From NCBI GenBank assembly GCA_903900935.1, contig CAIUOX010000033.1, positions 1-61,354 of the forward strand: DNA of 61,354 nucleotides, written 5' to 3'. Position 1 is the stretch's first letter; each line of letters opens with the position of its first letter. This stretch comes from an uncultured bacterium (GTDB lineage: Bacteria > Patescibacteriota > Minisyncoccia > Phycocordibacterales > PALSA-1337). A model generated the notes under the pieces. That model did not search any database. It worked only from the letters and a program-made list of their open reading frames with translations, and was not told the origin of the DNA. A program made the position numbers and the translations under genes. Positions 20,065 to 46,024 of the stretch are shown here, one piece after another.

Positions 20065-22683
20065 ATGGTAGCTTTACGAAAACATATACCTATACATGGA
20101 GAAGATGTGCATGCAGGACATGCAGGAAAAATAATCATCAAAGGTGCTAGAACTCACAATCTCAAGAATATTACAGTAGAGATGCCACGTAATACAATGA
20201 TTGCTATTACTGGTCTTTCTGGCTCAGGCAAATCATCTCTTGCATTTGATACTATCTTTGCTGAAGGTCAGAGACGTTATATAGAATCATTGTCTGCATA
20301 TGCGCGTCAATTCTTGCATAAGATGCAAAAGCCAGATGTTGACGAGATAACTGGGCTTTCTCCAGCTATTGCTATTGACCAAAAATCACGTTCAAATAAT
20401 CCTCGTTCCACGGTTGCGACTATAACTGAGATTTATGATTACCTTCGTATACTTTTTGCACGCGTAGGCAAGCCACATTGTTTGACTTGTGGACGTCTTA
20501 TTAGTCGTATTTCCAAAGAAGAAATTTTGGATACGATATTGAAGACAGTTACCTCAAAGACCACAAAAGCGAAGAAAATATATGGTGTAGATATTTCTAG
20601 TGCCAAAATTTGTATTTATGCTCCAGTTGTTGTTGGTCGTAAGGGTGAATATTATCAGATGCTCTATGATTTGCTCGGGAAAGGCTATGCTCGTGTACGT
20701 ATTGATGGAAAAGTCATGAAACTTCGTGATCAAATCGTTCTTGAAAAGAATAAGAAGCATGATATTGATGTGCTCGTTGATGAAATATTTGTTAGTGAAT
20801 TCAAAGATATCCAAAAGGGCAGTGATGCATATGAGCGTCTCTCTGAAGCATTGGAACGAGCTATACAAGAAGCTGATGGACTTATCAGGATAGAATATCG
20901 TGAAGGTGAAGAACAACTAATGTCAGTAAAATTCATGTGTCCATATGACGGTTTCTCATATCCAGAAGTTGAGCCACGCTTATTTTCTTTTAACTCTCCA
21001 TATGGTGCATGTGTTGCTTGTAATGGACTTGGTACAGAAGGATTCTTTGCTGAAGAGATATGTAAGGTGTGCAAAGGTGCGCGTCTACGTGACGAGGCAT
21101 TAAATGTAAAAATTATTGACAAAAATATTTTTGATATCACTTCAATGTCGATTGAGCAAGCGGTAGCATATTTCAATACTATTAAATTGACTGATGTTGA
21201 ACGTGAAATTGCAAAAGTTATTTTGAAAGAAATTGCATCGCGTCTTTCTTTCATGGTAAATGTGGGTATTGAATATATTACGCTCAATCGTCGTGCTCAC
21301 ACACTTTCTGGTGGTGAGGCACAGCGTATTCGTCTTGCCTCACAGCTTGGTTCTGGGCTAGTTGGTGCATTGTATGTGCTTGATGAACCAACTATCGGTC
21401 TGCATCAGCGCGATAATGATCGTCTTATAAAGACATTGATCCATCTACGAGATCTTGGAAATACTATCATTGTAGTTGAGCACGATGAAGATACGATGTT
21501 TGCTTCAGATTATATGGTTGATATTGGTCCAGGTGCCGGTGTTCATGGTGGTAAAGTCGTTGTAGCTGGATATCTTGATGATTTATTGACTGCAAAAAAG
21601 AATACTTCAAATTCTTTAACTCTTTCATATCTACGTGGAGAATCAAAAATTTCTATACCCAATAAGCGCCGTGAACCAAAAGGAAAGATTATGATTCGTG
21701 GTGGCAATGTATTTAATATTAAAGATCTGAATGCTGATATACCACTTGGTACATTAAATGCAATTACTGGTGTTTCGGGTTCAGGAAAATCATCATTAAT
21801 GTATGAAATATTGTATCGCAATCTTTCTGCACGTCTTGAGATGAGACATCGTAGCAATGATGCAATCAATTGCAAAGAATTCAAAGGTTCAGAATATGTC
21901 AGTCGAGTTATCTTGATTGATCAGAGTCCGATCGGTCGTACACCTCGTTCAAATCCGGCAACATATACAGGTTCGTGGACGCATATCCGCGACTTATTTG
22001 CCTCAGAACCAGAAGCGCGAGCTCGTGGTTGGGGTGCTGGTAGGTTCTCATTCAATCGTGCTGGTGGACGATGTGAGGCATGTGAAGGAAATGGTGAGAT
22101 TGCAGTAGAAATGCACTTTTTGCCAACGGTATATGTGACTTGTGATATTTGCAATGGTAAACGATTTACAAAAGAGACTCTTGATATCAAATATCGCAAA
22201 AAGAATATCTCTGAAGTATTGAATCTCACAATTGAAGAGGCGCTTGAATTCTTTAGGGATATTCCTGCAGTTGAAGATCGTCTAAAAACACTTATGGATG
22301 TTGGGCTCGGTTATGTCAAGCTTGGGCAATCTGCTACAACGCTTTCTGGTGGTGAGGCACAGCGCGTGAAGATTTCCTCAGAACTTTATCGTGCACACCT
22401 TCAGAAGACTATTTATCTTCTTGATGAGCCAACAGTAGGTTTACACTATGCTGATGTTGAAAAATTGATAGATATTTTGCAAAAATTGGTTGAAAAAGGG
22501 AATACAGTCGTTGTTATTGAGCACAATCTTGATCTTATCAAGAATGCTGATTATGTTATAGATATCGGGCCAGAAGGAGGCGAGCGTGGTGGAAAGATCG
22601 TAGCGAAAGGTACACCAGAAGATGTGGTAATGAATGAAAAGAGCTATACGGGTATATATTTAAAAAGAATACTCAAAAGATAA
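20065..22683 (+). CDS. uvrA: excinuclease ABC subunit A
   Basis: Two ABC ATPase modules (GLSGSGKSSLAF, GVSGSGKSSL, LSGGEAQR twice) and zinc modules (CxxC pairs). Confidence 0.95.
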   Translation: MVALRKHIPIHGEDVHAGHAGKIIIKGARTHNLKNITVEMPRNTMIAITGLSGSGKSSLAFDTIFAEGQRRYIESLSAYARQFLHKMQKPDVDEITGLSPAIAIDQKSRSNNPRSTVATITEIYDYLRILFARVGKPHCLTCGRLISRISKEEILDTILKTVTSKTTKAKKIYGVDISSAKICIYAPVVVGRKGEYYQMLYDLLGKGYARVRIDGKVMKLRDQIVLEKNKKHDIDVLVDEIFVSEFKDIQKGSDAYERLSEALERAIQEADGLIRIEYREGEEQLMSVKFMCPYDGFSYPEVEPRLFSFNSPYGACVACNGLGTEGFFAEEICKVCKGARLRDEALNVKIIDKNIFDITSMSIEQAVAYFNTIKLTDVEREIAKVILKEIASRLSFMVNVGIEYITLNRRAHTLSGGEAQRIRLASQLGSGLVGALYVLDEPTIGLHQRDNDRLIKTLIHLRDLGNTIIVVEHDEDTMFASDYMVDIGPGAGVHGGKVVVAGYLDDLLTAKKNTSNSLTLSYLRGESKISIPNKRREPKGKIMIRGGNVFNIKDLNADIPLGTLNAITGVSGSGKSSLMYEILYRNLSARLEMRHRSNDAINCKEFKGSEYVSRVILIDQSPIGRTPRSNPATYTGSWTHIRDLFASEPEARARGWGAGRFSFNRAGGRCEACEGNGEIAVEMHFLPTVYVTCDICNGKRFTKETLDIKYRKKNISEVLNLTIEEALEFFRDIPAVEDRLKTLMDVGLGYVKLGQSATTLSGGEAQRVKISSELYRAHLQKTIYLLDEPTVGLHYADVEKLIDILQKLVEKGNTVVVIEHNLDLIKNADYVIDIGPEGGERGGKIVAKGTPEDVVMNEKSYTGIYLKRILKR

Positions 22684-22756: not shown

Positions 22757-23008
22757 TCAATCAATGACGTCATTGTGGTTATTCCTGTAGCGAAATGCAT
22801 AGTATGTTTGTATGTCGCAGATTCCTCGTCCGATGATGCATAGTCCGCGCCAACATCCGGCTAGCACCGACCACACTATGCCGATGATGACCAAGAAGAT
22901 TGCTCCGATCCAGCAATGGATTACGATCCGTTGTAAGAATCCATCAGTGTTTGTGTCCTTTTGTTTTGCGCTTAAGTCGTCCGTAAGGGATTGTATCAAT
23001 CGTGACAT
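22757..23008 (-). CDS. small hypothetical single-TM protein (83 aa), GC-rich
   Basis: TM segment IVIHCWIGAIFLVIIGIVWSVLAGCW. Has its own strand-specific terminator. Lies between uvrA and uvrC on the opposite strand. Confidence 0.5.
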   Translation of the reverse strand: MSRLIQSLTDDLSAKQKDTNTDGFLQRIVIHCWIGAIFLVIIGIVWSVLAGCWRGLCIIGRGICDIQTYYAFRYRNNHNDVID

Positions 23009-23090
23009 ATATTGCCTATGTTGTCTGATTTTGGTTGACTATTTTTTAAAATACTTGTGTTACTTCGCCAAATACCATACTCTTATTATT

Positions 23091-24326
23091 ATGAAGAGTC
23101 AATATGTCATCAAGCGAGCATTGCCTGATATGCCAGGCATATATATATTCAAGGACTACCAAAAAAGGCCTTTATATATTGGTCGTGCCACTTCGCTAAA
23201 AGACCGTGTCAAAAGTTATTTTTCAAATGATTTGATATCTACTCGTGGCCCACGTATTGTTGATATGATCACTAAAGCAGTTTCGCTTGAATGGCAGACG
23301 ACAGATTCTGTACTTGAAGCTATCATTCTTGAAAGCATCCAGATAAAAAAATATCAGCCAATATACAATGTTGATGAGCGTGATGATAAGAGTTCATACT
23401 ATGTAGTGATCACGGATGATATGTGGCCACGTGTTTTCTTGGCACGGGCAAGAGATCTTGATCAGCAGGTTAAAAAGAAGACTCTAGAATATCCAATCAA
23501 AAAACTATTTGGTCCATATCCGAATAGTGGCCTCATCAAAGAGGCATTAAAGATTCTGCGCAAAATGTTCCAATTCAAGGATAAAAAATCATTTGATGCT
23601 CGCCATGATGCATTTTATCAAGCACTTGGGCGTTCGCCAAAAGAATCTGATGTGAATGCACGTCGTAGGTATATAAGAATTATTGACAATCTTATTCTAT
23701 TTTTTGAAGGTAAAAAAGATACATTGCGAATAAAAATAGAAAAAGACATGAAAAGTGCAGCCAAAAATATGCGCTTTGAAGAAGCTGGTCGGTCAAAACA
23801 ATTGCTTTATGCACTCAATCATATCAACGATATATCTCTTATTAAGGCTGATAAGGTTTGTATGGGTTCAAGTTTTGTAAAACAATATCGCATTGAGGCA
23901 TATGATATCGCTCATATGTCAGGTAAAAATGTTGTCGGAGCTTTCGTTGTATCTGTAAATGGAGAATTCATATCAAGTGAGTATAGGAAGTTTATTATTT
24001 CAAAACAGCTTAATGATGATTTGGCTGGGCTTGAAGAAGTGCTCAATCGTAGACTCAATCATACTGAATGGAATTATCCAGATCTAATAGTTGTGGATGG
24101 AAATGATATGCATATTAAGCGCGCAGAATCAGTCTTATCTGCACGTAGAATTAGTATTCCTATAGTTGCAGTGACCAAAGATGAGCGCCATAAAGCTGTA
24201 GATATTATTGGTGCAGAAACTATCATTACTCCTCATGCCAAAGATATTATTGCTTTGAATATAGAAGCCCATCGATATGTTATTCGATTTCATCGCAATC
24301 GACGTAACAAAGGTCTGTTGCTATAA
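23091..24326 (+). CDS. uvrC: excinuclease ABC subunit C, short form (412 aa) lacking the C-terminal (HhH)2 domain
   Basis: GIY-YIG (PGIYIFKD...LYIGRA), UVR-like MRFEEAGRSKQLLYAL, and an endonuclease domain (IEAYDIAHMSG..., DLIVVDGN, EAHRYVIRFHR). The start is set at ATG 23091; the upstream part of ORF 22812 overlaps the opposite-strand gene and is not conserved. Confidence 0.85.
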   Translation: MKSQYVIKRALPDMPGIYIFKDYQKRPLYIGRATSLKDRVKSYFSNDLISTRGPRIVDMITKAVSLEWQTTDSVLEAIILESIQIKKYQPIYNVDERDDKSSYYVVITDDMWPRVFLARARDLDQQVKKKTLEYPIKKLFGPYPNSGLIKEALKILRKMFQFKDKKSFDARHDAFYQALGRSPKESDVNARRRYIRIIDNLILFFEGKKDTLRIKIEKDMKSAAKNMRFEEAGRSKQLLYALNHINDISLIKADKVCMGSSFVKQYRIEAYDIAHMSGKNVVGAFVVSVNGEFISSEYRKFIISKQLNDDLAGLEEVLNRRLNHTEWNYPDLIVVDGNDMHIKRAESVLSARRISIPIVAVTKDERHKAVDIIGAETIITPHAKDIIALNIEAHRYVIRFHRNRRNKGLLL

Positions 24327-30397: not shown

Positions 30398-30426
30398 AAA
30401 ACGCAGTACCTTTCGGTAGTGCGTTT
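30398..30426. terminator. shared hairpin terminator between ychF and the convergent small ORF
   Basis: AAACGCAGTACC-TTTC-GGTAGTGCGTTT (one mismatch). The A-run upstream gives a U-run on the minus strand. Confidence 0.55.
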
Positions 30427-30449
30427 GGGTGCAAGTGACGTGGTTCGTG

Positions 30450-30653
30450 CTAGATGATTCCAACGGATCCAGTTCGGCGAGCTGATTCGCGCCACTTATT
30501 CATCTGCTCGTGATGTCTTTGCATCACAAGATCAAACTCCTTCGGATTTTCCAACTGGAGATGACGCATCTCTCTTTCCCAATTAGACTCAAGCGGACGA
30601 AACAACCGATCAAGACGCGGAAAGAGCTTGTGAAAAAAGAACTTTCTTTTCAT
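30450..30653 (-). CDS. hypothetical small basic protein (67 aa), GC-rich
   Basis: ORF with a terminator downstream on the minus strand. No recognisable motif. Confidence 0.35.
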   Translation of the reverse strand: MKRKFFFHKLFPRLDRLFRPLESNWEREMRHLQLENPKEFDLVMQRHHEQMNKWRESARRTGSVGII

Positions 30654-30896
30654 CGTATAAATTTCCTTTCATAAATACAATATCATTCACTATTGTATGA
30701 GTCAATGAATTACAGGATGAAGAAGATGGTGGCGCGATAGAGTTTTCAATAGATTATTTGACCACAGATATCAGATTGACACAAGGGTGTAGAGATGCTA
30801 CGATTTTGTCATGCATGCCCGTTGCATGCAGTAGTCTTGAGGATAGCGACGTATAGTGCGACGCACCTATATGGCATAGTAGAACTTTGTAATAAT

Positions 30897-31046
30897 ATGA
30901 GCATTCAAAAACATAAGACGCGCAATCATGTGCGTGGCGGAGCTGGTTTGCTTATGATGGTCAGCGGTATCTTTTTTTTCGCAATCTGTTTTGTCGGGGC
31001 CGTTGGAAGTTTTGCCATTTTCATTTTAAAGCTGAAAGGTAAATGA
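30897..31046 (+). CDS. hypothetical small TM protein (49 aa)
   Basis: MSIQKHKTRNHVRGGAGLLMMVSGIFFFAICFVGAVGSFAIFILKLKGK. The stop overlaps the start of the next small ORF (ATGA). Confidence 0.35.
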   Translation: MSIQKHKTRNHVRGGAGLLMMVSGIFFFAICFVGAVGSFAIFILKLKGK

Positions 31047-31213
31047 TGAAAGATACATTCAATTTCCGTCAACATTTGGAATGTTCGTTGGAACATCCTC
31101 CTGTGTCCAGACACGCTTCTCCAGAAAGCGCAAAAGTCAATTTGATCGTTGTGATCTTCTTTGTCGGTTTTGCGATAATCACAATCATCGTCAAGATGTT
31201 TAGCTTGTATTGA
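31043..31213 (+). CDS. hypothetical small TM protein (56 aa)
   Basis: MMKDTFNFRQHLE...KVNLIVVIFFVGFAIITIIVKMFSLY, translationally coupled to the preceding ORF. Not in the ORF track (under 60 aa). Confidence 0.3.
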   Translation: MMKDTFNFRQHLECSLEHPPVSRHASPESAKVNLIVVIFFVGFAIITIIVKMFSLY

Positions 31214-31302
31214 TATCGGTTGCAAGAATTTTCAAGCCTTCCATATGAATGTGGTCGGCTTTTTTGTATATACAGTTTTTGAAAATAAGTTAGTTTTGAG
31301 CT

Positions 31303-34266
31303 ATGATTCATCGTATGAAAAAGAAAATTAATGTATTTCCAGTATATAATCCAGCCAACATAGAAAATAAGTGGCAAAAAAAGTGGCAATCAGCAAATCG
31401 TTCTGGGTTAGGCTCGGCTTCAAAGATATACAAAAGTACAGAAGATCCAAATAAAGAAAAATTTTATGTGCTTGATATGTTCCCGTATCCTTCAGGAGAA
31501 GGACTACATGTTGGACATCCAAAAGGATATATTGCAACTGACATTGTGTCTCGTTTTGAGCGCATGAATGGAAAGTCAGTGTTACATCCGATGGGATTTG
31601 ACGCATTCGGACTTCCTGCAGAGAATTATGCATTGAAGACAAAGGCTCATCCTGAGATTGGAGTCAAAAAGAATGTTGCTAGATACAAGAAGCAACTTGA
31701 GATTCTTGGTTTTGATTATGATTGGTCACGAGAGATCAATACGACTGATCCAGAATACTATCGCTGGACTCAATGGATATTTGTGCAACTATTCAAAAAA
31801 GGATTGGCGTATCAATCATTCGAGCCTATCAATTGGTGTCCTTCGTGCAAGACAGGTTTGGCAAATGAAGATCTTGAAGAGGGACGTTGCGAGCGCTGTG
31901 GTACTCCAGTTGAAAAGAAGCCTATGCGTCAATGGGTACTTAGGATTACTGATTATGCGGAGAGGCTTTTGAAGGATTTGGATGCGGTTGATAATGCAGG
32001 TTTACCACTCATCGATTGGCCTGCGTCAATCAAAGAATCTCAGCGAAATTGGATAGGCAAGTCAGAAGGTTCGTTGATTACTTTTACATTTTCAAATGCT
32101 TCACACAAGAAAAATATAGAAGTGTTCACCACAAGACCCGACACTTTGTTCGGTGTTACGTATGTTGTGCTCGCCCCTGAGCATGCCCTTGTTGCTGATC
32201 TTTTGCCTGTAGTCAAAAATAGACAAGAAGTCGAAGCATATATCTCACAGGCAAAGCTTGAAACAGAGATTGAACGCACTGATGCGAAGAAAGATAAGAC
32301 GGGGGTAGAGCTCAAAGGGGTGAAGGTTATCAATCCAGTAAACAAAAAAGAGGTTCCGGTATGGATATCTGATTATGTTCTCGCGGATTATGGTACCGGT
32401 GCGGTCATGGCAGTTCCAGCTCACGATGATCGTGATTGGGCTTTTGCCAAGAAGTTCAAGTTGCCAATCAAAGAAGTTATCAGTCCATTGTTTGTCAGTG
32501 AGTATTCGAGTGATGCATGGAGATCGCAAGAACCAGAAGTTATTCGTCCTACGGTGGTATGCATCATCAAACATTGGTCAGAGAACAAGTATTTATTCTT
32601 GAATAAAAAGGACCTTGCAGATCTTGGTAAAGACGTTGTTGTTGGTGTAGCTGGTGGAATAGATGGTGGTGAGGTGCATGAAGTTGCTGGAGCTCGAGAA
32701 ATTCTCGAGGAGACCGGTTATAAGAATGCTCGATTTGTAAAATCGTTGGGTGAACCGGTTGCGTATCGCTATTATTCCAAGAATGGAAAACAAAATCGCT
32801 TGGGGATGCTCTATCCTCTGTATTATGAGTTGAAAGATGGTGAACAGGTTCAAGTTTCAGAAGAAGAGAAATTTTTGCATCAAACTACATGGCTCACAGA
32901 GAAGGAAATGGATGTGTATTTAAACACACGACCATTCAATCCTATTTTTTGGGAACGATTCAAGGGTACGACTCGACCATACACTGGATATGGAATATTG
33001 ATCAATTCAGAAAAGTTTGATGGCACGTCATCTGCAGATGCAAAACGTCCTATCACTGAATATGCAGGCGGTGCCATGAAGACGACGTATAAGCTTCGTG
33101 ATTGGGTATTTTCACGTCAGCGTTATTGGGGTGAGCCAATACCACTCATTCATTGTGAGAAATGTGGAGTAGTTCATGTGCCAGAAAAGGATTTGCCAGT
33201 AAAACTTCCAAAGGTAAAGTCATATGAACCAACTGGTACAGGGGAATCTCCTTTGGCTACTATTGATAAATGGGTCAATGTGAAGTGTCCAAAGTGCAAA
33301 GGAAATGCAAAGCGCGAAACGAACACTATGCCACAATGGGCAGGTTCATCGTGGTATTACCTTCGTTATATGGATCCGAAAAATAAAAAAGTACTCGTTG
33401 ACAGCGCGCGCGAGAAGTATTGGTCACCAGTAGATCTCTATGTTGGTGGAGCCGAACATGCGACACGCCATCTTATATATGCGCGTTTCTGGCATAAGTG
33501 TTTGTATGATATTGGAATTGTGTCAAATATTGAACCATTCAAGAAATTACAGAGCGTTGGTCTCATCATGGGAGAAGACGGTAGAAAAATGGGGAAGCGT
33601 TACGGGAATGTGGTCAACCCCGATGATATTGTTGCAACATATGGTGCAGATACATTACGTCTTTATGAGATGTTTATGGGTCCATTTGAGCAACAGATTG
33701 CATGGAATACTTCTAGCATGGTTGGAAGTCGACGATTTATTGAAAAGGTTTGGAAGCTTAGAGAAAAAATAGATGTGACAGAAGTCTCTATTGAAGCAGA
33801 TTTGTATATCACAAAGAACATTCATAAAGCTATAAAGAAAGTTACAGATGATATCCAAGTATTACGATTCAATACAGCCATAAGTTCTCTGATGATTGCC
33901 GTGAATGAAATTGATAAACAAAAAAGCCTGACTCGCCCACAATATGAAGTTATACTCCAATTACTCGCACCATTCGTGCCACATGTTGCTGAAGAACTAT
34001 GGATGTCTCTTGGTAATAAGAAATCAGTCCATATCTCAGTATGGCCAGAATATGATGCAAAATATCTAGTGGATGCTGATATGACTATCATTGTTCAAGT
34101 CAATGGAAAAGTTAGGGGATCATTTATTGCTACGATTGATTCAAGTAATGCAGATCTTGAGCAAAGGGCCAAGAATTTGCCAGACACAAACAAGTGGATT
34201 GAAGGTAAGAAGATAATCAAAGTAGTCGTAGTACCAAAGCGCCTTGTCAATATAGTTGTGGTATAA
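31303..34266 (+). CDS. leuS: leucyl-tRNA synthetase carrying an internal Nudix-hydrolase domain insertion
   Basis: HIGH motif (HVGHPKGY), CP1 editing domain (TTRPDTLFG...AVPAHDDRD), KMSKS variant (KMGKR) and RDWVFSRQRYWGEPIP. Residues about 395-560 are extra and contain a perfect Nudix box. The start is possibly ATG 31315 (TATGAT -10 at 31302-31307). Confidence 0.9.
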   Translation: MIHRMKKKINVFPVYNPANIENKWQKKWQSANRSGLGSASKIYKSTEDPNKEKFYVLDMFPYPSGEGLHVGHPKGYIATDIVSRFERMNGKSVLHPMGFDAFGLPAENYALKTKAHPEIGVKKNVARYKKQLEILGFDYDWSREINTTDPEYYRWTQWIFVQLFKKGLAYQSFEPINWCPSCKTGLANEDLEEGRCERCGTPVEKKPMRQWVLRITDYAERLLKDLDAVDNAGLPLIDWPASIKESQRNWIGKSEGSLITFTFSNASHKKNIEVFTTRPDTLFGVTYVVLAPEHALVADLLPVVKNRQEVEAYISQAKLETEIERTDAKKDKTGVELKGVKVINPVNKKEVPVWISDYVLADYGTGAVMAVPAHDDRDWAFAKKFKLPIKEVISPLFVSEYSSDAWRSQEPEVIRPTVVCIIKHWSENKYLFLNKKDLADLGKDVVVGVAGGIDGGEVHEVAGAREILEETGYKNARFVKSLGEPVAYRYYSKNGKQNRLGMLYPLYYELKDGEQVQVSEEEKFLHQTTWLTEKEMDVYLNTRPFNPIFWERFKGTTRPYTGYGILINSEKFDGTSSADAKRPITEYAGGAMKTTYKLRDWVFSRQRYWGEPIPLIHCEKCGVVHVPEKDLPVKLPKVKSYEPTGTGESPLATIDKWVNVKCPKCKGNAKRETNTMPQWAGSSWYYLRYMDPKNKKVLVDSAREKYWSPVDLYVGGAEHATRHLIYARFWHKCLYDIGIVSNIEPFKKLQSVGLIMGEDGRKMGKRYGNVVNPDDIVATYGADTLRLYEMFMGPFEQQIAWNTSSMVGSRRFIEKVWKLREKIDVTEVSIEADLYITKNIHKAIKKVTDDIQVLRFNTAISSLMIAVNEIDKQKSLTRPQYEVILQLLAPFVPHVAEELWMSLGNKKSVHISVWPEYDAKYLVDADMTIIVQVNGKVRGSFIATIDSSNADLEQRAKNLPDTNKWIEGKKIIKVVVVPKRLVNIVVV

Positions 34267-34401: not shown

Positions 34402-35436
34402 ATGGCAACCGCTTCTATTTCATTCAAACCAAAACAGACAGTAAAGCGTCTTTTGTCGTCTTTGCCTGATCGTGCACGAGAGGTACTGATATATCGTTAC
34501 GGTCTCGGTTCTGATACAAAGCGCATGACTCTTGATTCTATTGGCAAGAAGTATGGTATCACTCGTGAGCGCGTCCGTCAGATTGAGAATTATGGCATAG
34601 CCAATGTTCGCAAGTCTGAAGAATACAAACAAGAAAAAGCAGCATTTGCAGAGATTGAGGCTCTCCTCCATTCTCTTGGTGGTATTGTTGTAGAAGATGA
34701 TTTTCTCGGCCATGTCTCAAAAGACAAGAGTCTCCAAAACCATGTTCATTTTATTTTGGTCGTTGGTGAGCCATTTCGCAAACTCAAAGAAGATGATGAT
34801 TTCCGACATCGTTGGCATGTCAATGAAGAGCTCGCAAAACAAGTCGAAAGTGCACTTCGTAGGTTGTATTCCAATCTTGACAATCAACAGCTTCTTCCAG
34901 AATCAGAGATGGTTGCAAAATTCCTACAGCACCTTGAAGATGTCTCAGAGCGCTACAAAAATCAGGAAGTTGTAAAACGCTGGTTGGCGATCTCAAAATC
35001 TATTGGTAAGAATGCTCTTGGTGATTGGGGAGTTGCAGATTCTTCGAATATCAAGACAAAAGGTATGCGTGACTATGCATTTCTAGTTATACGCAAGCAT
35101 GGATCACCAATACATTTTCGTGATGTCGCAAAACAGATAACTCAACTCTTCAATAAGAAGGCTCATGTAGCTACGACACATAATGAGCTCATCAAAGATC
35201 CTCGATTCGTACTAGTTGGTCGTGGTCTCTATGCTCTCGCAGAATGGGGTTATGCCCCAGGGGTTGTGCGCGATGTTATCCGTTCAGTCATCTCAAAGAA
35301 TGGTACTCTGAGCAAAGATGAGATTATAGACAAGGTCATGAAGGAACGATATGTCAAAGAAAATACCATCGTTGTAAACCTCCAAAATCCAAAATATTTT
35401 AAAAAGGACAAAGAAGGAAAGTATACAATAGCCTAA
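34402..35436 (+). CDS. sigma-70 region-4-like HTH plus C-terminal HARE-HTH domain protein
   Basis: The N-terminal LPDRAREVLIYRYGL....TLDSIGKKYGITRERVRQIE matches sigma70_r4. The C-terminal MRDYAFLVIRKHGSPIHFRDVAKQI...DPRFVLVGRGLYALAEWGY matches the HARE-HTH pattern. Confidence 0.7.
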   Translation: MATASISFKPKQTVKRLLSSLPDRAREVLIYRYGLGSDTKRMTLDSIGKKYGITRERVRQIENYGIANVRKSEEYKQEKAAFAEIEALLHSLGGIVVEDDFLGHVSKDKSLQNHVHFILVVGEPFRKLKEDDDFRHRWHVNEELAKQVESALRRLYSNLDNQQLLPESEMVAKFLQHLEDVSERYKNQEVVKRWLAISKSIGKNALGDWGVADSSNIKTKGMRDYAFLVIRKHGSPIHFRDVAKQITQLFNKKAHVATTHNELIKDPRFVLVGRGLYALAEWGYAPGVVRDVIRSVISKNGTLSKDEIIDKVMKERYVKENTIVVNLQNPKYFKKDKEGKYTIA

Positions 35437-35458: not shown

Positions 35459-35495
35459 AAAGCCCAGAAGCGAAAGCCCTGGGCTTTAACTTTTT
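35459..35495 (+). terminator. rho-independent terminator
   Basis: AAAGCCCAG-(11 nt)-CTGGGCTTT followed by AACTTTTT. Confidence 0.7.
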
Positions 35496-35505
35496 GAGTA
35501 TGAAC

Positions 35506-35514
35506 TGCTATAAT
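35506..35514 (+). promoter_or_regulatory. extended -10 (TGCTATAAT), 6 nt before the ATG at 35521
   Basis: TGnTATAAT at 35506-35514. This argues that the CDS starts at 35521, not 35494. Confidence 0.5.
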
Positions 35515-35520
35515 AATCAT

Positions 35521-36795
35521 ATGGATATTGAAATAGCATTTTTTTCTCTCTTTCCAGAACTGAAGGTATTGATTATGCCTGAAGTAGTACACTATGCGAT
35601 ATTTTTTGCGCCTATAGTTGTGGCGATTGTTCTTGGAGAGATATTTTGGCATGTCTGGGTTCAATATGTGCAAGCAAAAGAATTTTTGGGTCTCAAATAT
35701 ACAGTTCTAGAGCTCAAACTTCCGAAGGATACTTTCAAGTCTCCTTTGTCTATGGAATTATTTTTGACCTCTCTTCATAACATATCTGGAGAAAACTGGT
35801 ATTCAATGTATTGGAAAGGTGAGACAAGACCATGGTATTCCCTTGAGCTTATTTCTGTTGAAGGTCAAGTTAAGTTTTTTATCTGGACAGAAGATCGTCG
35901 CAAAGCTGGGATTATATCTGCTCTTTATTCTCAGTACCCAGAATTAGAAATAATTGAACGTGAAGATTATACAAAAGGCATGCATTTTGACTCCAAGACA
36001 ATGAGGCTTTGGTGTGCAGAATTTGTATTTACAAAAGCCGATCCATATCCAATCAAGACATATGTAGACTATGGTCTCGACAAAGACCCCAAAGAAGAGT
36101 TCAAAATAGATCCGATGACACCGATGATTGAATTCTTGGGAAGTGTGCCACCAAATCAGCAGGTTTGGATACAATTTATTATTCGAGGTCATAAGAAAGA
36201 ACAGCGCAAACCTGGTCATATATTCAAGAAAACTGATCTATGGAAAGATCAGGCAGAGGCAGAGATCAACAAAATATTATTACGTGACAAAAAGACCAAA
36301 GTTGCAGGTGAGGTCAATCCTGATACTGGTTATTCAAAATTACCTACGATTACAAAAGGCGAGCAAGAGATTGTTGCTGCACTCGAGCGAAGTATATCCA
36401 AGACTCCATTTGATGTTGGTATACGAGCAATATATGTTGCGCCAAAAGAAACATTTGATACACCATTTGGTATTGGAGGAACAATTTCTTCTTTTTCACA
36501 TTATCGCTATGAGCATCTAAATGGTTTTAAACCAAATGGGGAAAAATGGCATGTTCAGTTGACATATCCATGGCAGGATTACAACAATATACGCCGTAAT
36601 CGTTTGTCTAAACGAGGACTCGCTGCCTACAAGCGTCGTTCATATTTTTATGCACCATACAAATCAAAGCCTCTTGTGCTCAATGTAGAAGAGTTGGCTA
36701 CGATATATCATTTTCCAGGTTCTGTATCAGCGACACCAAATCTTAGTCGTATTCCTTCCAAGAAGTCTGGTGCACCAAGTAATCTTCCAACATAG
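35521..36795 (+). CDS. conserved-looking hypothetical protein with an N-terminal TM anchor (424 aa)
   Basis: TM segment VVHYAIFFAPIVVAIVLGEIFW, then YTVLELKLPKD and a C-terminal EELATIYHFPGS. No enzymatic motif recognised. Confidence 0.6.
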   Translation: MDIEIAFFSLFPELKVLIMPEVVHYAIFFAPIVVAIVLGEIFWHVWVQYVQAKEFLGLKYTVLELKLPKDTFKSPLSMELFLTSLHNISGENWYSMYWKGETRPWYSLELISVEGQVKFFIWTEDRRKAGIISALYSQYPELEIIEREDYTKGMHFDSKTMRLWCAEFVFTKADPYPIKTYVDYGLDKDPKEEFKIDPMTPMIEFLGSVPPNQQVWIQFIIRGHKKEQRKPGHIFKKTDLWKDQAEAEINKILLRDKKTKVAGEVNPDTGYSKLPTITKGEQEIVAALERSISKTPFDVGIRAIYVAPKETFDTPFGIGGTISSFSHYRYEHLNGFKPNGEKWHVQLTYPWQDYNNIRRNRLSKRGLAAYKRRSYFYAPYKSKPLVLNVEELATIYHFPGSVSATPNLSRIPSKKSGAPSNLPT

Positions 36796-40440: not shown

Positions 40441-42255
40441 ATGTCTAAATATGCTTCTGCAAAAGAGTTACTTGATTATTTGAATATTACTCACACAAAA
40501 CTTCATAAAACATATGAAGATTATTTTTGGATTTCATACATGGGAGATCATAGTGTTGATAAAAAAATGAATGAGGCCCAATCAGCTCGTGATGCGTTTA
40601 GATCAAATGCCAAATTAAAATCTGAAGTTGAGTATTTTCTCAAAATATCAAAAGGTGTAATCAAGAAGCGTCTGGAGATATGGAATCATTGTTTTGGTTT
40701 GTATCAAATGCCAAAAGAAGCTTCTACAATAAAGGCAAAAGTAATAGCTCTTGAATCAAAAATAGCGAATATACGAACCAATAGAAAAGAAGGATATATT
40801 GATCCAACATCCGGTGTATTTATTGATACTTCTGAAAATAAAATGCGTACGATGATGAGAACGCATCCAGAAGAAAAAATAAGAAAAGCCTGTTTTGATG
40901 CTATAGAGAAATTACCACTCGCATATATTGATACCTATGTTGAAATTATACGTGGCAGAAACGAATTTGCACGAGCATTGGGATATAGTGATTTTTATGA
41001 ATACAAAGCTCGTATAGACGAAGATATGTCAAAAAAAGAATTGTTCTCTATTTTTGATAAAATATATGAAAAGACGAAATATGGTTTTAAAAATATCCGT
41101 GTATTGGAAAAAGATAAGCCTGGATTGCGCAAACCATGGAATTTTGTCTATATGCTGACTGGCGACTTGATCAAAGAGGAAGATGCGTACTTCCAATTTG
41201 AGAATGTACTCTCATATTGGGGCAGGTCATTCGTGGCGCTTGGTATTCATTTCAATGGTGGTAAGGTAATGCTAGATCTTCTTGATAGGAAAGGTAAGCA
41301 CAATAATGGTTTTTGTCATTATCCGGATCTCGTTCATTACAAGAAGGGAAAGCGTATAGCTGGTTCAAGCAATTTTGCATCGAATGCAGTACTTGGGCAA
41401 ATGGGGTCTGGAGTTCAAGGTATTTATACTGTATTCCATGAAGGTGGCCATGCTGCAGATCGTTTGAATTCATTACAGCAAGAAACTTGTGCAAATACAG
41501 AATATCCACCTTCGTCAGTATCATGGGCCGAGACACACAGTATGTTTATGGAGACTATATCAAGCAGTATTGAATGGCGTATACGTTATGCAAAAGACAA
41601 AGACGGCAATGCATATCCATTTGAATTGTTCAGAAAAAATATAGACAGAGTATTTCCACTTCGACCACTAGACATGATGCATATATCATTTGTTGTTTTT
41701 TTTGAAAAAGAGATATATGAATGCAAAAATCTTACTCGAGAAAAAGTTATTGATATAGCAAAGAAATCATATAAGAAATATTTTGATCGATCTGGAGATT
41801 CCATATTGGCATTGAATGTATCACACATTTATTCATGGGAAAGTTCGGCTTATTATCATGGATATGGTTTGGCAGAACTTGGTGTATGCCAGTGGCGTGA
41901 ATATTTTTTCAAGAAATATGGATATATAGTAGACAATCCAAAAGTTGGCAAGGAGATTATCAATATATGGTCATATGCATCGATCTATACTGCAAAAAAG
42001 CTTATCGCAATGGCAACTGGGAAAAAATTGAGTCCAAATTCATTTATACGCGATATAACAAAATCTAAAATAAAGATTATTGAGGATGCAAAACAGCGAG
42101 TTTCTCGTCTTGAAGAAGTTCCTCACTATACAAAACCAGTTAATTTAAAGGGTAAAATAACGATGGTTCATGGCAAAAAGAAAATTGCTGACAATAGCAA
42201 ATCATTTGAGGAGATGGACAAGAAGTATCGTTTGTGGCTAAAAACAGTAAAATAA
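40441..42255 (+). CDS. M3-family zinc metallopeptidase (oligoendopeptidase F-like)
   Basis: HExxH motif [11 protein letters not shown] with a downstream Glu-rich region; size typical of PepF-like enzymes. Confidence 0.7.
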
Positions 42256-42922: not shown

Positions 42923-44785
42923 ATGCATTCATCAGATATTCGTTCGCGCTTTCTTGCATTCTTTGCAAAGCGTGGACATGTGATCATACAATCAGCATCG
43001 CTTGTAACAGCTGATGAAAAAGGTATAACCAATCCAACATTGTTCAATACTGCTGGCATGCAACCTCTTATCCCATACCTGCTAGGTAAGGCACATCCAC
43101 AAGGTACTCGTCTGGTAGATTCGCAAAAATGTGTGCGCACAGTTGATATTGATGATGTCGGTGACAGGACTCATGCGACATTTTTTGAAATGCTCGGAAA
43201 TTGGTCTTTGGGTGACTATTTCAAGAAAGAGGCTATTCTCTGGAGTTACGAATTCCTAACTTCAGAAGAAGGACTTGGTCTAAATCCAAATCAGCTTTAT
43301 GTAACTGTTTTTGAAGGTGATAAAAACGCATCAAAAGACGAAGAGGTAGCTAATATTTGGAAAAACATATTCACAAAAAACAATATAGAAGTCGGAGGAG
43401 ATACAACAAAAGGTGATAAAGGTAGAATATTTTATCTTCCTGCAAAAAATAATTGGTGGGAAGCTGGTGACAATGGTCCATGTGGACCCGATAGTGAGAT
43501 GTTTTATGATTTTGGTAATGCATTCAAGGGTACACTTCTCACACATACCGATTTTGTAAATGCTGACGATACACGAGTAGTACTTGAAGTATGGAATGAT
43601 GTTTTTATGCAATACGAGAAGAAAGACGGCAAGATTATCCGCACATTACCAAAACCATCGGTAGATACTGGTGCTGGTCTTGAGCGCCTAGCCATGACAC
43701 TTCAAGGAGTTGATAATATATATGATACTGATTTATTGAAATCTGCGATGGACAAGATCAAAGAGCTTTCCAAGAATTGGGAACTTATATCTGCGCGTAT
43801 TGTTGCAGATCATATCAAAGCGTCTGTCTTTTTGATTGCTGATGGAGTAATTCCTTCAAATACTGATAGAGGCTATGTGCTCCGAAAATTGATTCGTCGC
43901 GCAGTAAGACATTCAGATAAGCTTGGTATGCAGGGAGATATAGCTGAAGTTGTAGATCTCATACAACAGCAATATGCCTCTGTATATACAAATGTCGCTG
44001 ATGCCCAAAATAAGTTGCGTATCCAGTCAGTCATTCAAGAAGAAGAATACAAATTTAGAATAACACTTGCTCATGGTCTCAAAGAATTTGCGAAGCTAGC
44101 TACAAAAGATATTTCTGGGCATGATGCTTTTGCTCTTTTTTCTAGCTATGGTTTTCCACTTGAATTGACAGTTGAGCTATCAAAAGAGCGTAGTATAAAA
44201 GTTGATATTACGGCTTTTGAAGTTGAATTTAAAAAGCATCAAGATCTCTCACGTGTTGGCGCTGAACAAAAATTCAAGGGCGGGTTGGCTGATATGCAAG
44301 ATCCGATGGTCATTCGTTACCATACTGCTACACATTTATTGCATCAAGCTCTTCATGATGTATTAGGAGATGGTGTTGGACAGAAAGGTTCAAATATCAC
44401 CGCTGAACGTTTACGTTTTGATTTTTCATGGGGCACCAAGATGACTGATGAACAAAAAAAGAAAGTTGAGGATATAGTAAATGAGAAAATCGCACAAGCC
44501 CTACCTGTAAATCAAGTCATTATGAAAAAGGATGAAGCAGAAAAGACTGGTGCTCGGCATTTCTTTGGAGAAAAATATGGTGAAGATATTTCTATCTATT
44601 TCATTGGTAATGATATCAATTCTGCATATTCAAAAGAATTTTGTGGTGGTCCTCATGTAAAAAATACTTCTGAATTGGCTGGTCCTGAAGGCATGCCTGG
44701 GCATGCAGGGAAGTGGAAATTCAAGATACAAAAAGAAGAGGCAAGTTCACACGGTGTAAGGAGAATAAAGGCAGTATTGGTATAG
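42923..44785 (+). CDS. alaS: alanyl-tRNA synthetase, short form (620 aa) lacking the C-Ala domain
   Basis: N-terminal IRSRFLAFFAKRGH, FEMLGNWS.GDYFK, WNDVFMQY, editing-site HTATHLLHQAL and CGGPHV. The protein ends about 40 aa after the editing domain. Confidence 0.9.
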   Translation: MHSSDIRSRFLAFFAKRGHVIIQSASLVTADEKGITNPTLFNTAGMQPLIPYLLGKAHPQGTRLVDSQKCVRTVDIDDVGDRTHATFFEMLGNWSLGDYFKKEAILWSYEFLTSEEGLGLNPNQLYVTVFEGDKNASKDEEVANIWKNIFTKNNIEVGGDTTKGDKGRIFYLPAKNNWWEAGDNGPCGPDSEMFYDFGNAFKGTLLTHTDFVNADDTRVVLEVWNDVFMQYEKKDGKIIRTLPKPSVDTGAGLERLAMTLQGVDNIYDTDLLKSAMDKIKELSKNWELISARIVADHIKASVFLIADGVIPSNTDRGYVLRKLIRRAVRHSDKLGMQGDIAEVVDLIQQQYASVYTNVADAQNKLRIQSVIQEEEYKFRITLAHGLKEFAKLATKDISGHDAFALFSSYGFPLELTVELSKERSIKVDITAFEVEFKKHQDLSRVGAEQKFKGGLADMQDPMVIRYHTATHLLHQALHDVLGDGVGQKGSNITAERLRFDFSWGTKMTDEQKKKVEDIVNEKIAQALPVNQVIMKKDEAEKTGARHFFGEKYGEDISIYFIGNDINSAYSKEFCGGPHVKNTSELAGPEGMPGHAGKWKFKIQKEEASSHGVRRIKAVLV

Positions 44786-44810
44786 TTGGTGGTAAAGGTT
44801 TATCAGATCT

Positions 44811-44858
44811 ATTCGCCCACGAGAATTTGTCTCGTAGGGCGAATTTTCTTTTATTTTA
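44811..44858 (+). terminator. rho-independent terminator after alaS
   Basis: ATTCGCCCACGAGA-ATTTG-TCTCGT(A)GGGCGAAT followed by TTTTCTTTTATTTT. Confidence 0.85.
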
Positions 44859-44886
44859 ATATACACACACTCAACAAATGTTCCTA

Positions 44887-44895
44887 TGATATAAT
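44887..44895 (+). promoter_or_regulatory. extended -10 (TGATATAAT), 7 nt before the ATG at 44903
   Basis: TGnTATAAT at 44887-44895. It lies downstream of the alaS terminator, so the CDS starts at 44903, not 44786. Confidence 0.5.
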
Positions 44896-44902
44896 AATCC
44901 CA

Positions 44903-46024
44903 ATGTCTTTCTCTTCAAAAAAGTCATCACTCATTCTTATTCTCGACGTGCAAAGTTCAGTCGTTAGGGGATCACTTTGTATATTCAATCCAAAAGATCG
45001 TCCTCATATTATCTTTTCTTATGAGGTACCGATCAATTATCACATAGGAAAGGGAAGCGCTCATTTGATACAAAAGACCACAGAAGTGATTGGTGAGATA
45101 GTTCACAAAGCGCTTCGTTCTATTCAAGGTAAAAAAGTTGATGGTGTCCATTATGTCCTATCATCTCCGTGGATATTGTCTCAAGGTAAAACTGTCACTG
45201 TTGAATTTGCTAAAAATACAAAAACAACCCGTGAGCGAATTATTGAAATTGTAACGAAGCATCGCGATGAGTTTATTACAGAGAATCAATCAGATTTCGA
45301 AATTATTGAGGAAAAGATTTTTGATGTAAGACTCGATGGCGTATCTATAGATAAATGGCAAAAAAGAAAAGCTCGAATTACTGAGGTATCATTTGCAGTA
45401 AGTATCGCCGGATCAGAAACACTCAAACAATTGAGAGATGCATGTGCACATGCAGTAATACCAGAACAAATTACATTCCACTCTTCATTACTTTTGCAAT
45501 ATATAGCTGTTCAGCAGACTATTCCTCAATACAAAGATTATACACTTATTCATGCTCACGGAGAATTGACTGATATCATTTGTGTTGAAAATAGCACATG
45601 CTCATTCTTCGCATCATATCCGTATGGCACAAACACTATTATTCGTTCTATTGAAGCCAAACTAAAGACTTCACAACAACAAGCAGAATCATATATTTCT
45701 CTATATGAACAAGGAAGTTTGGATTCAAGCCATGCCCACTCTATACATATCGCAATACAAAAAGTTCAGCATATATGGTCAGCAGAGTTGCTAAAAATAA
45801 TAGGACATTCTGCTATCACGCAAAAACAGAATGAACATATTTTACTATCAGCACATGCACATGAAGCATTTTTCATTCATGCTCTTAGGTCAATACCTTC
45901 ATACAAAACAGTACAACGTCTTGAATTAGACGACATCCGTCCACGCGTGACATTGGATCCAAACATACGAGTATCTCGCATGACTGGATTGTATGTGCTA
46001 GCTATTCACAGCACGCTCCAATAA
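44903..46024 (+). CDS. actin-fold (PilM/FtsA-like) protein, degenerate nucleotide-binding motifs
   Basis: LILILDVQSSVVRGSL resembles the phosphate-1 motif LDIGSSS.K. LIHAHGELTDIICV resembles the degenerate phosphate-2 motif DxGxxxTD. Confidence 0.4.
   Translation: MSFSSKKSSLILILDVQSSVVRGSLCIFNPKDRPHIIFSYEVPINYHIGKGSAHLIQKTTEVIGEIVHKALRSIQGKKVDGVHYVLSSPWILSQGKTVTVEFAKNTKTTRERIIEIVTKHRDEFITENQSDFEIIEEKIFDVRLDGVSIDKWQKRKARITEVSFAVSIAGSETLKQLRDACAHAVIPEQITFHSSLLLQYIAVQQTIPQYKDYTLIHAHGELTDIICVENSTCSFFASYPYGTNTIIRSIEAKLKTSQQQAESYISLYEQGSLDSSHAHSIHIAIQKVQHIWSAELLKIIGHSAITQKQNEHILLSAHAHEAFFIHALRSIPSYKTVQRLELDDIRPRVTLDPNIRVSRMTGLYVLAIHSTLQ

Follow-up and report, generated by a model that had tools for sequence, protein, structure and literature searches.

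Aminoacyl-tRNA synthetases (aaRSs) belong to the best-studied enzymes, and those of bacteria are usually seen as conservative in architecture. Canonical leucyl-tRNA synthetases (LeuRS), such as those of E. coli (PDB ids: 4AQ7, 4ARC) and T. thermophilus (2BTE), carry the HIGH and KMSKS motifs, a CP1 editing domain that follows a Zn module and contains a T-rich motif and a conserved Asp, and anticodon-binding and C-terminal domains. All of these are shared by the LeuRS encoded in the stretch of DNA analysed here (the window: all 61,354 nucleotides of contig CAIUOX010000033.1, assembly GCA_903900935.1, from an uncultured bacterium of the Patescibacteriota), the modelled fold of which matches the canonical one with template modelling (TM) scores of 0.79–0.84 (target-normalised) at 32–36% sequence identity. 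The solved LeuRS chains that were matched are 621–876 residues long and none has a domain in the CP1 loop, whereas the window protein has 166 residues there, which make up a second, predicted enzyme of the Nudix hydrolase type. E. coli LeuRS presumably has about 20 residues at this loop, roughly residues 363–381.

The NadM-Nudix protein combines a HIGH-motif nicotinamide mononucleotide adenylyltransferase, which belongs to the same superfamily as class I aaRS cores, with an ADP-ribose pyrophosphatase. This bifunctional enzyme is mentioned in PMC7824862. Its likeness to the window protein is that a HIGH-motif nucleotidyltransferase is joined to a Nudix domain, in this case one that degrades a nucleotide related to the enzyme's own product; it differs in being an end-to-end and not a nested fusion, in its host enzyme and in serving the nicotinamide adenine dinucleotide (NAD) pathway. 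That a bacterial class I aaRS can carry an unrelated enzyme domain is known from the NCBIfam model NF040702 ('isoleucine--tRNA ligase, N-acetyltransferase domain-containing'), but there the domain is of the GNAT type and the host is IleRS. No comparable model for a LeuRS–Nudix protein is found among the NCBIfam models matched by the window protein. According to a domain-insertion survey of 2026, the LeuRS editing domain occurs exclusively as an insertion and never as a host (zero instances; PMC13114784). Here, by contrast, CP1 hosts a Nudix domain, which gives three levels of nesting.

The initial annotation of this DNA, made from the sequence alone, knew of no described LeuRS with an embedded Nudix domain. 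Full-text searches of ~8.3 million papers and preprints also found no description of one, but the trait itself is widespread and is already tagged automatically with PF00293 in databases. What is new is the combination of LeuRS and Nudix; the sequences are not, as they are abundant in public metagenomic data with automatic Pfam tags.

A Nudix domain nested in the CP1 editing domain

The leuS ORF (open reading frame) runs without interruption for 987 aa. Its parts, with the insertion site called C below occupied by the Nudix domain, are as follows:

31303–34266, plus strand: leuS, a bacterial-type LeuRS with one nested Nudix domain (987 aa, ORF)
31507–31530, plus strand: HIGH signature region HVGHPKGY, aa 69–76 (motif search; H69, G71 and H72 invariant in 74 relatives)
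31837–31899, plus strand: Zn-binding module CxxC...CxxC with C179, C182, C196 and C199 (from the sequence), just ahead of insertion site A of the relatives
32044–32484, plus strand: CP1 editing domain, its first 147 residues, aa 248–394 (PF13603)
32128–32145, plus strand: T-rich motif TTRPDT in CP1, aa 276–281 (motif search)
32410–32457, plus strand: AVPAHDDRDWAFAKKF in CP1, aa 370–385, which carries AHDDRD at aa 373–378 (motif search)
32485–32982, plus strand: inserted Nudix hydrolase domain, aa 395–560 (PF00293, AlphaFold2, Foldseek)
32653–32721, plus strand: Nudix box GGIDGGEVHEVAGAREILEETGY, the catalytic metal-binding helix, aa 451–473 (motif search)
32983–33090, plus strand: CP1 C-terminal remainder, aa 561–596 (GILINSEKFDG...), and linker returning to the catalytic core (second stretch of PF13603)
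33586–33600, plus strand: KMSKS-type loop KMGKR, aa 762–766 (K762, M763, K765 and R766 invariant in relatives)
33799–34122, plus strand: anticodon-binding domain, aa 833–940 (PF08264, 78.9 bits)

The initial annotation had described a complete Nudix domain, inserted in frame inside LeuRS and filling an oversized loop of about 165 residues. The insert lies between the main body of CP1 and its C-terminal part. The description holds: its coordinates for the insert are exact, the LeuRS motifs that it quoted are all present at the residues given, and the domain is recognised by PF00293, by its fold and by its conserved homologues. The loop segment is 157 aa longer than in P0078 (810 aa), a close relative without the insert. 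The relatives in this comparison are the 120 closest LeuRS proteins in a collection of 5.8 billion proteins, found with the full protein as the query. The spacing between their AHDxRD..FAKKF and YKLRDW motifs is 20–79 aa in 27 cases and 180–239 aa in 91.

PF00293 matches aa 395–560 alone with 34.3 bits (E 2.7e-8) and the same region of the full protein with 30.0 bits, both above the gathering score of 21.1. The box GGIDGGEVHEVAGAREILEETGY fits the pattern GX5EX7REUXEEXGU at all constrained positions, the final U being Y; the annotation was right about this match, although its coordinates for the box (32650–32718) were off by 3 nt. A full match to the pattern is estimated to arise by chance with a frequency of ~4e-10 per residue position, or ~5e-5 expected matches in the window translated in all six frames. 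Given this expectation and the E-value of PF00293, the box is not a chance match.

The AlphaFold2 (AF2) model of aa 395–560, built from an alignment of 43 homologous inserts, has a predicted local distance difference test score (pLDDT) of 94 and a predicted TM score (pTM) of 0.88, and shows the Nudix order of strands and helices, an α/β/α sandwich that carries the box on a loop–helix–loop. The REILEE residues sit on the helix formed by residues 65–77 of the insert, and the flanking sequences that had been proposed to be β-strands are strands in the model. Within the full-length AF2 model the Nudix segment keeps the same secondary structure, with a pLDDT of 78–96. A Foldseek search of the PDB with the insert model gives 518 matches at E<=0.001, and all 50 that were listed are Nudix proteins. 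In the models, the insert in its surface loop of CP1 is a complete Nudix domain that folds independently and has the full set of catalytic residues.

The host is recognised around the insert in two parts. Pfam finds tRNA-synt_1, tRNA-synt_1_2, PF13603 and Anticodon_1 in the protein. PF13603, the LeuRS editing domain, scores 212 bits in two pieces: profile positions 1–143 match aa 248–396, the remainder resumes after aa 560, and NUDIX is found between them. The NCBIfam model TIGR00396 (leuS_bact) also matches in two stretches with the insert between them, at 997.2 bits against a cut-off of 548.4. The domains are nested, Nudix within CP1 and CP1 within the Rossmann core. The full-length AF2 model (pLDDT 82.7, pTM 0.73) has 2BTE, 5ON2 and 4AQ7 as its best structural matches, and aligns with the LeuRS of T. 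thermophilus, E. coli and N. gonorrhoeae with E-values down to 2e-75 and TM scores of 0.75–0.84 (target-normalised).

The CP1 residues T277, R278, D280, T281, H374, D375, R377 and D378 do not vary among 74 relatives. In the alignment of relatives C179, C196 and C199 of the Zn module are also invariant columns, and G564, S569, F572 and G574 are conserved in the C-terminal part of CP1. Further motifs are FKLPIKEVISP (aa 385–395), GILINSEKFDG (aa 564–574) and RDWVFSRQRYWGEPIP (aa 599–614). Judged by its sequence, the window protein is a bona fide, functional-looking bacterial LeuRS with intact synthetic and editing motifs, and both functions are expected to be retained. Because 74 relatives show no variation in the editing, HIGH and KMSKS residues, the Nudix domain is an addition and not a substitute for a dead editing site. 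Replacement of a decayed editing site is rejected for the window, where all editing motifs belong to the invariant set.

Some other Nudix-bearing LeuRS (P0122, P0139, P0142, P0150 and locus L004 3–3659) have a variant of CP1 without the T-rich motif ('IQTFSAHFEAFAADTFVVIAPDHP ... IVKCSAHDERDFAFAKKY'). Their sequences may mean that post-transfer editing was lost while the Nudix domain was kept, and these proteins may fit the picture of a replaced, decayed editing site.

Distribution among LeuRS proteins

Most of the 120 relatives have a precomputed match to PF00293. Mapped against P0078 as the insert-less reference, an insertion of 142–168 aa lies at precisely the loop of the window protein in 92 of the 120, and the strict Nudix box is present in 84 of these 92. 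PF00293 is matched by all 43 representative homologous inserts. The alternative raised at the outset, a lineage-specific LeuRS insertion that only mimics the Nudix motif, is not borne out, as homologous inserts keep the REUXEE residues. When the insert was scanned over one genome per GTDB species, 15 loci were found, and each match lies within a long ORF with LeuRS motifs. A word-indexed search with the insert alone found only P0001, its sensitivity being too low; searches with the full protein and with profiles were used in its place.

As with any metagenomic contig, an assembly chimera could a priori have placed a fragment of a Nudix gene in leuS, and nothing beyond this general possibility speaks for it. 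The relatives that share the architecture come from NCBI, JGI, ENA and Logan assemblies with contigs of up to ~760 kb, and the 15 GTDB species genomes have it as well. The reading frame is uninterrupted, GC content is even over both insert junctions (0.40–0.46) and synteny is conserved. The same join on many independent contigs speaks so strongly against a mis-join, the other alternative that had been considered initially, that a chimera is rejected as vanishingly improbable.

The LeuRS–Nudix architecture is widespread in the LeuRS of Patescibacteria and occurs in some LeuRS of the DPANN type; it is not peculiar to the window. Those relatives that are named are nearly all from Patescibacteria, Parcubacteria, Paceibacterota or Taylorbacteria. 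Some of the hosts are archaeal-style LeuRS, and one GTDB locus bears the label Woesearchaeota.

The same Nudix subfamily is seen in an archaeal-style LeuRS, from a metagenome-assembled genome (MAG) labelled Woesearchaeota, and in another LeuRS subtype (L003 2924–5815, L015 3128–6298, P0144, P0151 and P0166). In a MAG labelled Cytophagales it occupies site A of a LeuRS of another subtype, which has 'GVPQLDDRD' in place of AHDxRD. Either there is contamination in these bins or the trait has reached lineages outside Patescibacteria.

Conservation of the catalytic residues

A local hidden Markov model, built from the site-C inserts, was run on 121 proteins (the 120 LeuRS and the free-standing P0001) and found 170 copies of the domain. 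Homologous Nudix domains of ~155 aa occur once in 63 of these proteins, twice in 34 and three times in 13. Identity to the domain of the window falls to 16–40% across the 170 copies, whereas the box is kept: G451, E466 and E470 are present in all 170, G472 in 169 and E469 in 166. E457 is found in 143 copies, with Gln in 25 more, and R465 in 142. In a comparison with the ortholog in locus L001, the ratio of nonsynonymous to synonymous substitution rates (dN/dS) is 0.16 for the insert and 0.07 for the rest of the gene; since dS is close to saturation (0.97–2.1), these values are to be read qualitatively. This pattern of substitutions shows the Nudix catalytic residues as being under purifying selection.

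The conservation bears on whether the domain is catalytic at all. It could be a structural, tRNA-binding, nucleotide-sensing or regulatory module that keeps its box for ligand binding only. Boxes with E457Q or R465A/M do exist, in part of one sequence cluster and mainly in second copies at site A, so the fold persists with an altered box, and a single protein can hold up to three Nudix copies. The domain of the window has the full catalytic set, and so does the sequence cluster to which it belongs, where eight of the nine members keep it at every checked position. Together with the invariance of E466 and E470 and the dN/dS of the insert, this makes a purely non-catalytic role improbable.

Free-standing members and the association with leuS

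A profile of the domain was searched against 1.84 billion representatives of 50%-identity clusters, which gave 165 matches at E<=1e-30. The best 150 of these were classified: 107 are LeuRS or fragments of LeuRS (in which the domain occurs 90 times at site C and 12 times at site A), and 31 are proteins of <=210 aa in which no LeuRS core is detected, a few being short fragments. None of the remaining 12 could be identified as a different synthetase or a second host family.

Free-standing members P0140, P0146 and P0147 are 160–190 aa long and match the subfamily profile with E-values of 1e-49 to 1e-52. They share subfamily, organisms and gene neighbourhood with the domain of the window, but are separate polypeptides, whereas the window's domain is covalently nested in CP1. 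The neighbourhoods of six free-standing members were read; five had enough contig, and that of P0001 was too short. Three of the five end 2–10 nt upstream of leuS: P0140 stops 2 nt ahead of it, in the same synteny as in the window (ychF...leuS–Sigma70_r4/HARE-HTH–...–yceG), P0146 stops 3 nt ahead of an insert-less leuS and P0147 stops 10 nt ahead of the leuS start.

The two others have different contexts. P0145 is found 2.4 kb upstream of a leuS gene without the insert, within a cluster of genes on one strand (locus L018 482–8549) that has the order MetRS-like synthetase, unknown, TatD, P0145, two small genes, YfbR-like HD nucleotidase, unknown, MutT-like Nudix and leuS. The Nudix gene that directly precedes leuS in L018 is of a second, unrelated type (classical MutT-like, 145 aa). 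P0181 is co-oriented with mutM/fpg and lies 4 nt after it.

Four further proteins of 273–287 aa (P0214, P0227, P0243 and P0248) have a degenerate C-terminal piece of CP1, a Nudix domain and a 'G.L.NS' tail with no synthetase core. They look like a free-standing module made of a CP1 fragment and Nudix.

Sequence comparisons show the domain as part of a distinct Nudix subfamily of ~155 aa, the members of which are found mostly within LeuRS or directly upstream of leuS. This subfamily is tied to LeuRS by its fusion at two sites, by its conserved position next to leuS and by having almost exclusively LeuRS proteins as hosts. The feature is real, lineage-wide and specifically associated with LeuRS, and the domain is probably catalytic.

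Further insertion sites and additional enzymes in LeuRS relatives

Insertions in the relatives concentrate at five hot spots (A–E), equivalent to ~aa 228, 262, 395, 620 and 663 of the window protein:

Site A, between the Zn module and the strand that leads into CP1: a single Nudix domain or two (59 of 120)
Site B, at the start of CP1: α/β hydrolase of ~180 aa (24 of 120)
Site C, the CP1 loop used in the window: Nudix (92 of 120)
Site D, after 'VIHC..C': α/β hydrolase of ~195 aa in four, and an insert of 74 aa without a Pfam tag in P0081 (5 of 120)
Site E, in a second Zn-ribbon-like module: HAD domain of 212 aa (9 of 120)

The Pfam tags of the extra domains are PF06821, PF00561 and PF12697 for the α/β hydrolases and PF13419 for the HAD phosphatase. 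Up to five inserted domains are found in one relative, and the longest protein has 1558 aa. Relatives with extra enzymes include P0006, P0009–P0011, P0021, P0024, P0033, P0035, P0048, P0054, P0071, P0076 and P0084–P0086, among others.

The closest relative, P0003 (87% identity), has both sites A and C filled, whereas the window protein and P0005 have only C, so gain or loss at site A occurs between close relatives. Within one protein, the Nudix domains share only ~31% identity. Two Nudix sequence clusters hold members from both sites, which implies that Nudix domains were placed in LeuRS repeatedly or that copies moved between sites.

The five loops are permissive positions of LeuRS that could be of use in protein engineering. 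The proteins, 950–1560 aa long, are named inconsistently in databases, as 'leucine--tRNA ligase', 'class I tRNA ligase family protein' or 'alpha/beta fold hydrolase', which is a matter for annotation.

Nearest Nudix enzymes and possible substrates

The nearest structural and profile neighbours of the domain belong to the group of RppH and dinucleoside polyphosphate (ApnA) hydrolases (4S2W, 3I7U, 1F3Y, Rv2985). The Nudix box and the predicted fold are shared with this group, but identity is only 16–20% and its members are free proteins, whereas the window's domain is an internal insertion with motifs of its own. The Foldseek matches listed for the insert, all at 16–20% identity, include 2AZW, 2B0V, E. 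coli RppH entries, 3I7U, MutT1/Rv2985, ADP-ribose pyrophosphatases and NudC. Superposition on the Aquifex Ap4A (diadenosine tetraphosphate) hydrolase 3I7U gives a TM score of 0.81 (target-normalised) and a root-mean-square deviation of 2.5 Å at 19% identity. In the profile search, the lupin Ap4A hydrolase 1F3Y is matched with E 3e-8, confined to the N-terminal half. The domain of the window also has aromatic residues, Y490/Y491 (consensus F/Y), 17–18 residues past the Nudix box. An aromatic residue at this distance is, as we take it, a marker of ApnA hydrolases, and is a lead rather than a test. The subfamily has conserved motifs of its own, KHWSE(D/N)KYL upstream of the box and K..NR, YFEL and H...W downstream.

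None of the NCBIfam equivalog models comes near its cut-off on the insert: the RppH/NudH models NF001938 and NF001936 reach 21.2 and 20.4 bits against 116 and 118, and the MutT1 model reaches 15 bits against 475. The likeness to RppH is confined to the fold. Naming the domain RppH, MutT, NudC or Ap4A hydrolase is therefore unjustified, and a specific enzyme name for the Nudix part is rejected.

The initial annotation had offered, as speculation, that the domain degrades Ap4A-like by-products or aminoacyl-adenylates or acts on the tRNA. aaRSs form Ap4A from the aminoacyl-adenylate and ATP. The nearest structures and profile matches (RppH, Ap4A/ApnA hydrolases, AvrM14, NUDT12), and this capacity of aaRSs to make Ap4A-type dinucleotides, point weakly to an ApnN-type class of substrates. 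The reading that we favour, possible rather than probable, is that the domain clears dinucleoside polyphosphates made by LeuRS or related adenine-nucleotide by-products. The Nudix domain would be an active Mg2+-dependent pyrophosphohydrolase beside LeuRS, a third hydrolytic or catalytic site. Attack of ATP or other nucleotides on Leu-AMP would give Ap4A, diadenosine triphosphate (Ap3A) or Ap4N, and the tethered hydrolase would remove the ApnN product where it is made, in an organism with a minimal genome.

Several observations weigh against clearance of LeuRS by-products. Enzymes acting on ADP-ribose, NADH and 8-oxo-GTP are among the structural neighbours, which all lie at the low identity given above, and the best NCBIfam equivalog, RppH, stays at 21 bits against 116. 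To our knowledge, LeuRS is not among the strongest producers of Ap4A. One free-standing member adjoins mutM/fpg and another is in the cluster of TatD and the YfbR-like nucleotidase, contexts that hint at general cleaning of the nucleotide pool. Finally, chemically unrelated hydrolases (α/β and HAD) are inserted in the LeuRS of relatives, which a story of Ap4A alone leaves unexplained.

Some of these same points suggest a house-cleaning enzyme, which would sanitise the nucleotide pool in the manner of MutT and have no tie to leucylation; its fusion would secure co-expression with an essential, constitutively produced protein of a streamlined genome, the surface loops of which happen to be tolerant. 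The position of P0181 next to mutM/fpg, part of the 8-oxoguanine repair system, is consistent with this, as is the clustering of P0145 with TatD, the YfbR-like HD nucleotidase and a second, MutT-like Nudix gene adjoining leuS. MutT1 is among the structural neighbours, and the α/β-hydrolase and HAD inserts fit a tolerant scaffold. The subfamily is, however, concentrated in LeuRS (107 of the best 150 matches) with no second host family identified, and occupies two different internal sites, which is not a simple terminal fusion; the low score of the MutT-type NCBIfam model adds to this. Such a role without a link to leucylation is rather unlikely.

The best sequence-profile matches of the insert in the PDB are the mRNA-decapping effectors AvrM14-A and AvrM14-B (E 6e-9), with NUDT12 and Dcp2 also present, and raise a third option. 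Like RppH, NudC or Dcp2, the domain could remove a 5'-triphosphate, a 5'-diphosphate or a cap (NAD, Np4A) from tRNALeu or another RNA bound by LeuRS. E. coli RppH entries are among the top Foldseek matches (4s2w, 4s2x, 6vco and others), RNA complexes included, as is an Ap4A complex (7sp3); RppH is the best, though weak, NCBIfam match. The host binds RNA, and the mobile CP1, on which the insert lies, approaches the acceptor stem. These similarities are, however, generic to the Nudix fold at such identities, and free-standing members exist that LeuRS cannot position. An activity directed at RNA is unlikely.

In the most far-reaching reading, the LeuRS of Patescibacteria (and some DPANN archaea) would be a modular platform with additional hydrolytic active sites. 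Its Nudix domain would be a new cis-acting module for clearance or proofreading that acts on a LeuRS product (ApnN, conceivably non-cognate adenylates) or on the 5' end of tRNALeu; this we regard as possible but doubtful. If it holds, the class I synthetase encoded in the window has three different catalytic sites, for synthesis, for CP1 editing and in the Nudix domain, and relatives with α/β-hydrolase and HAD domains would have up to six or seven. A Nudix site acting on LeuRS-derived nucleotides or on tRNA would mean that a synthetase contains a new means of controlling quality or of clearing by-products, and would offer a direct way into the long debate on how dinucleoside polyphosphates made by aaRSs are dealt with physiologically. 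Even if the link is one of co-expression only, the repeated insertion of Nudix, α/β-hydrolase and HAD domains into a single essential enzyme shows how house-keeping chemistry is packaged in ultra-small genomes.

Gene neighbourhood of leuS in the window

The leuS gene lies in a house-keeping context, preceded by uvrB/uvrA/uvrC-like genes, ddl, tRNA-Ala, a histidine kinase gene, zwf and ychF. Downstream of it are genes for a Sigma70_r4/HARE-HTH protein (34402–35436) and a 433-aa protein without a Pfam match at E<=1e-4 (35494–36795), followed by yceG, a response regulator gene, mnmA and, further on, alaS and dnaK. The order leuS–Sigma70_r4/HARE-HTH–...–yceG is kept in at least one relative, and a DUF8128 protein stands in place of the 433-aa ORF in a syntenic relative. 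The context around the window's leuS shows no mutM-type GO system; a mutM neighbour is seen in one of the six free-standing members.

No free-standing Nudix gene is present upstream of leuS in the ORF listing of the interval to ychF, and the ~900 nt between the two genes (30398–31302) have no Rfam match. This interval contains only small ORFs, for example one of 67 aa on the minus strand and a hydrophobic one of 83 aa on the plus strand. In syntenic relatives it holds small genes, a DUF5671 protein gene and, in some, a free-standing Nudix gene.

The AlaRS encoded at 42923–44785 has just 620 aa (tRNA-synt_2c and tRNA_SAD), below the typical bacterial length, and carries no Nudix or other extra domain. 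ORFs of 604, 412 and 456 aa (40441–42255, 44786–46024 and 46058–47428) have no Pfam match at E<=1e-5. The genes uvrB (15684–17750), a short uvrA (20065–22683, 872 aa) and the uvrC-like gene (22812–24326, 504 aa) lie close together, and the sole domain detected in the product of the last is an RNase H-like endonuclease domain.

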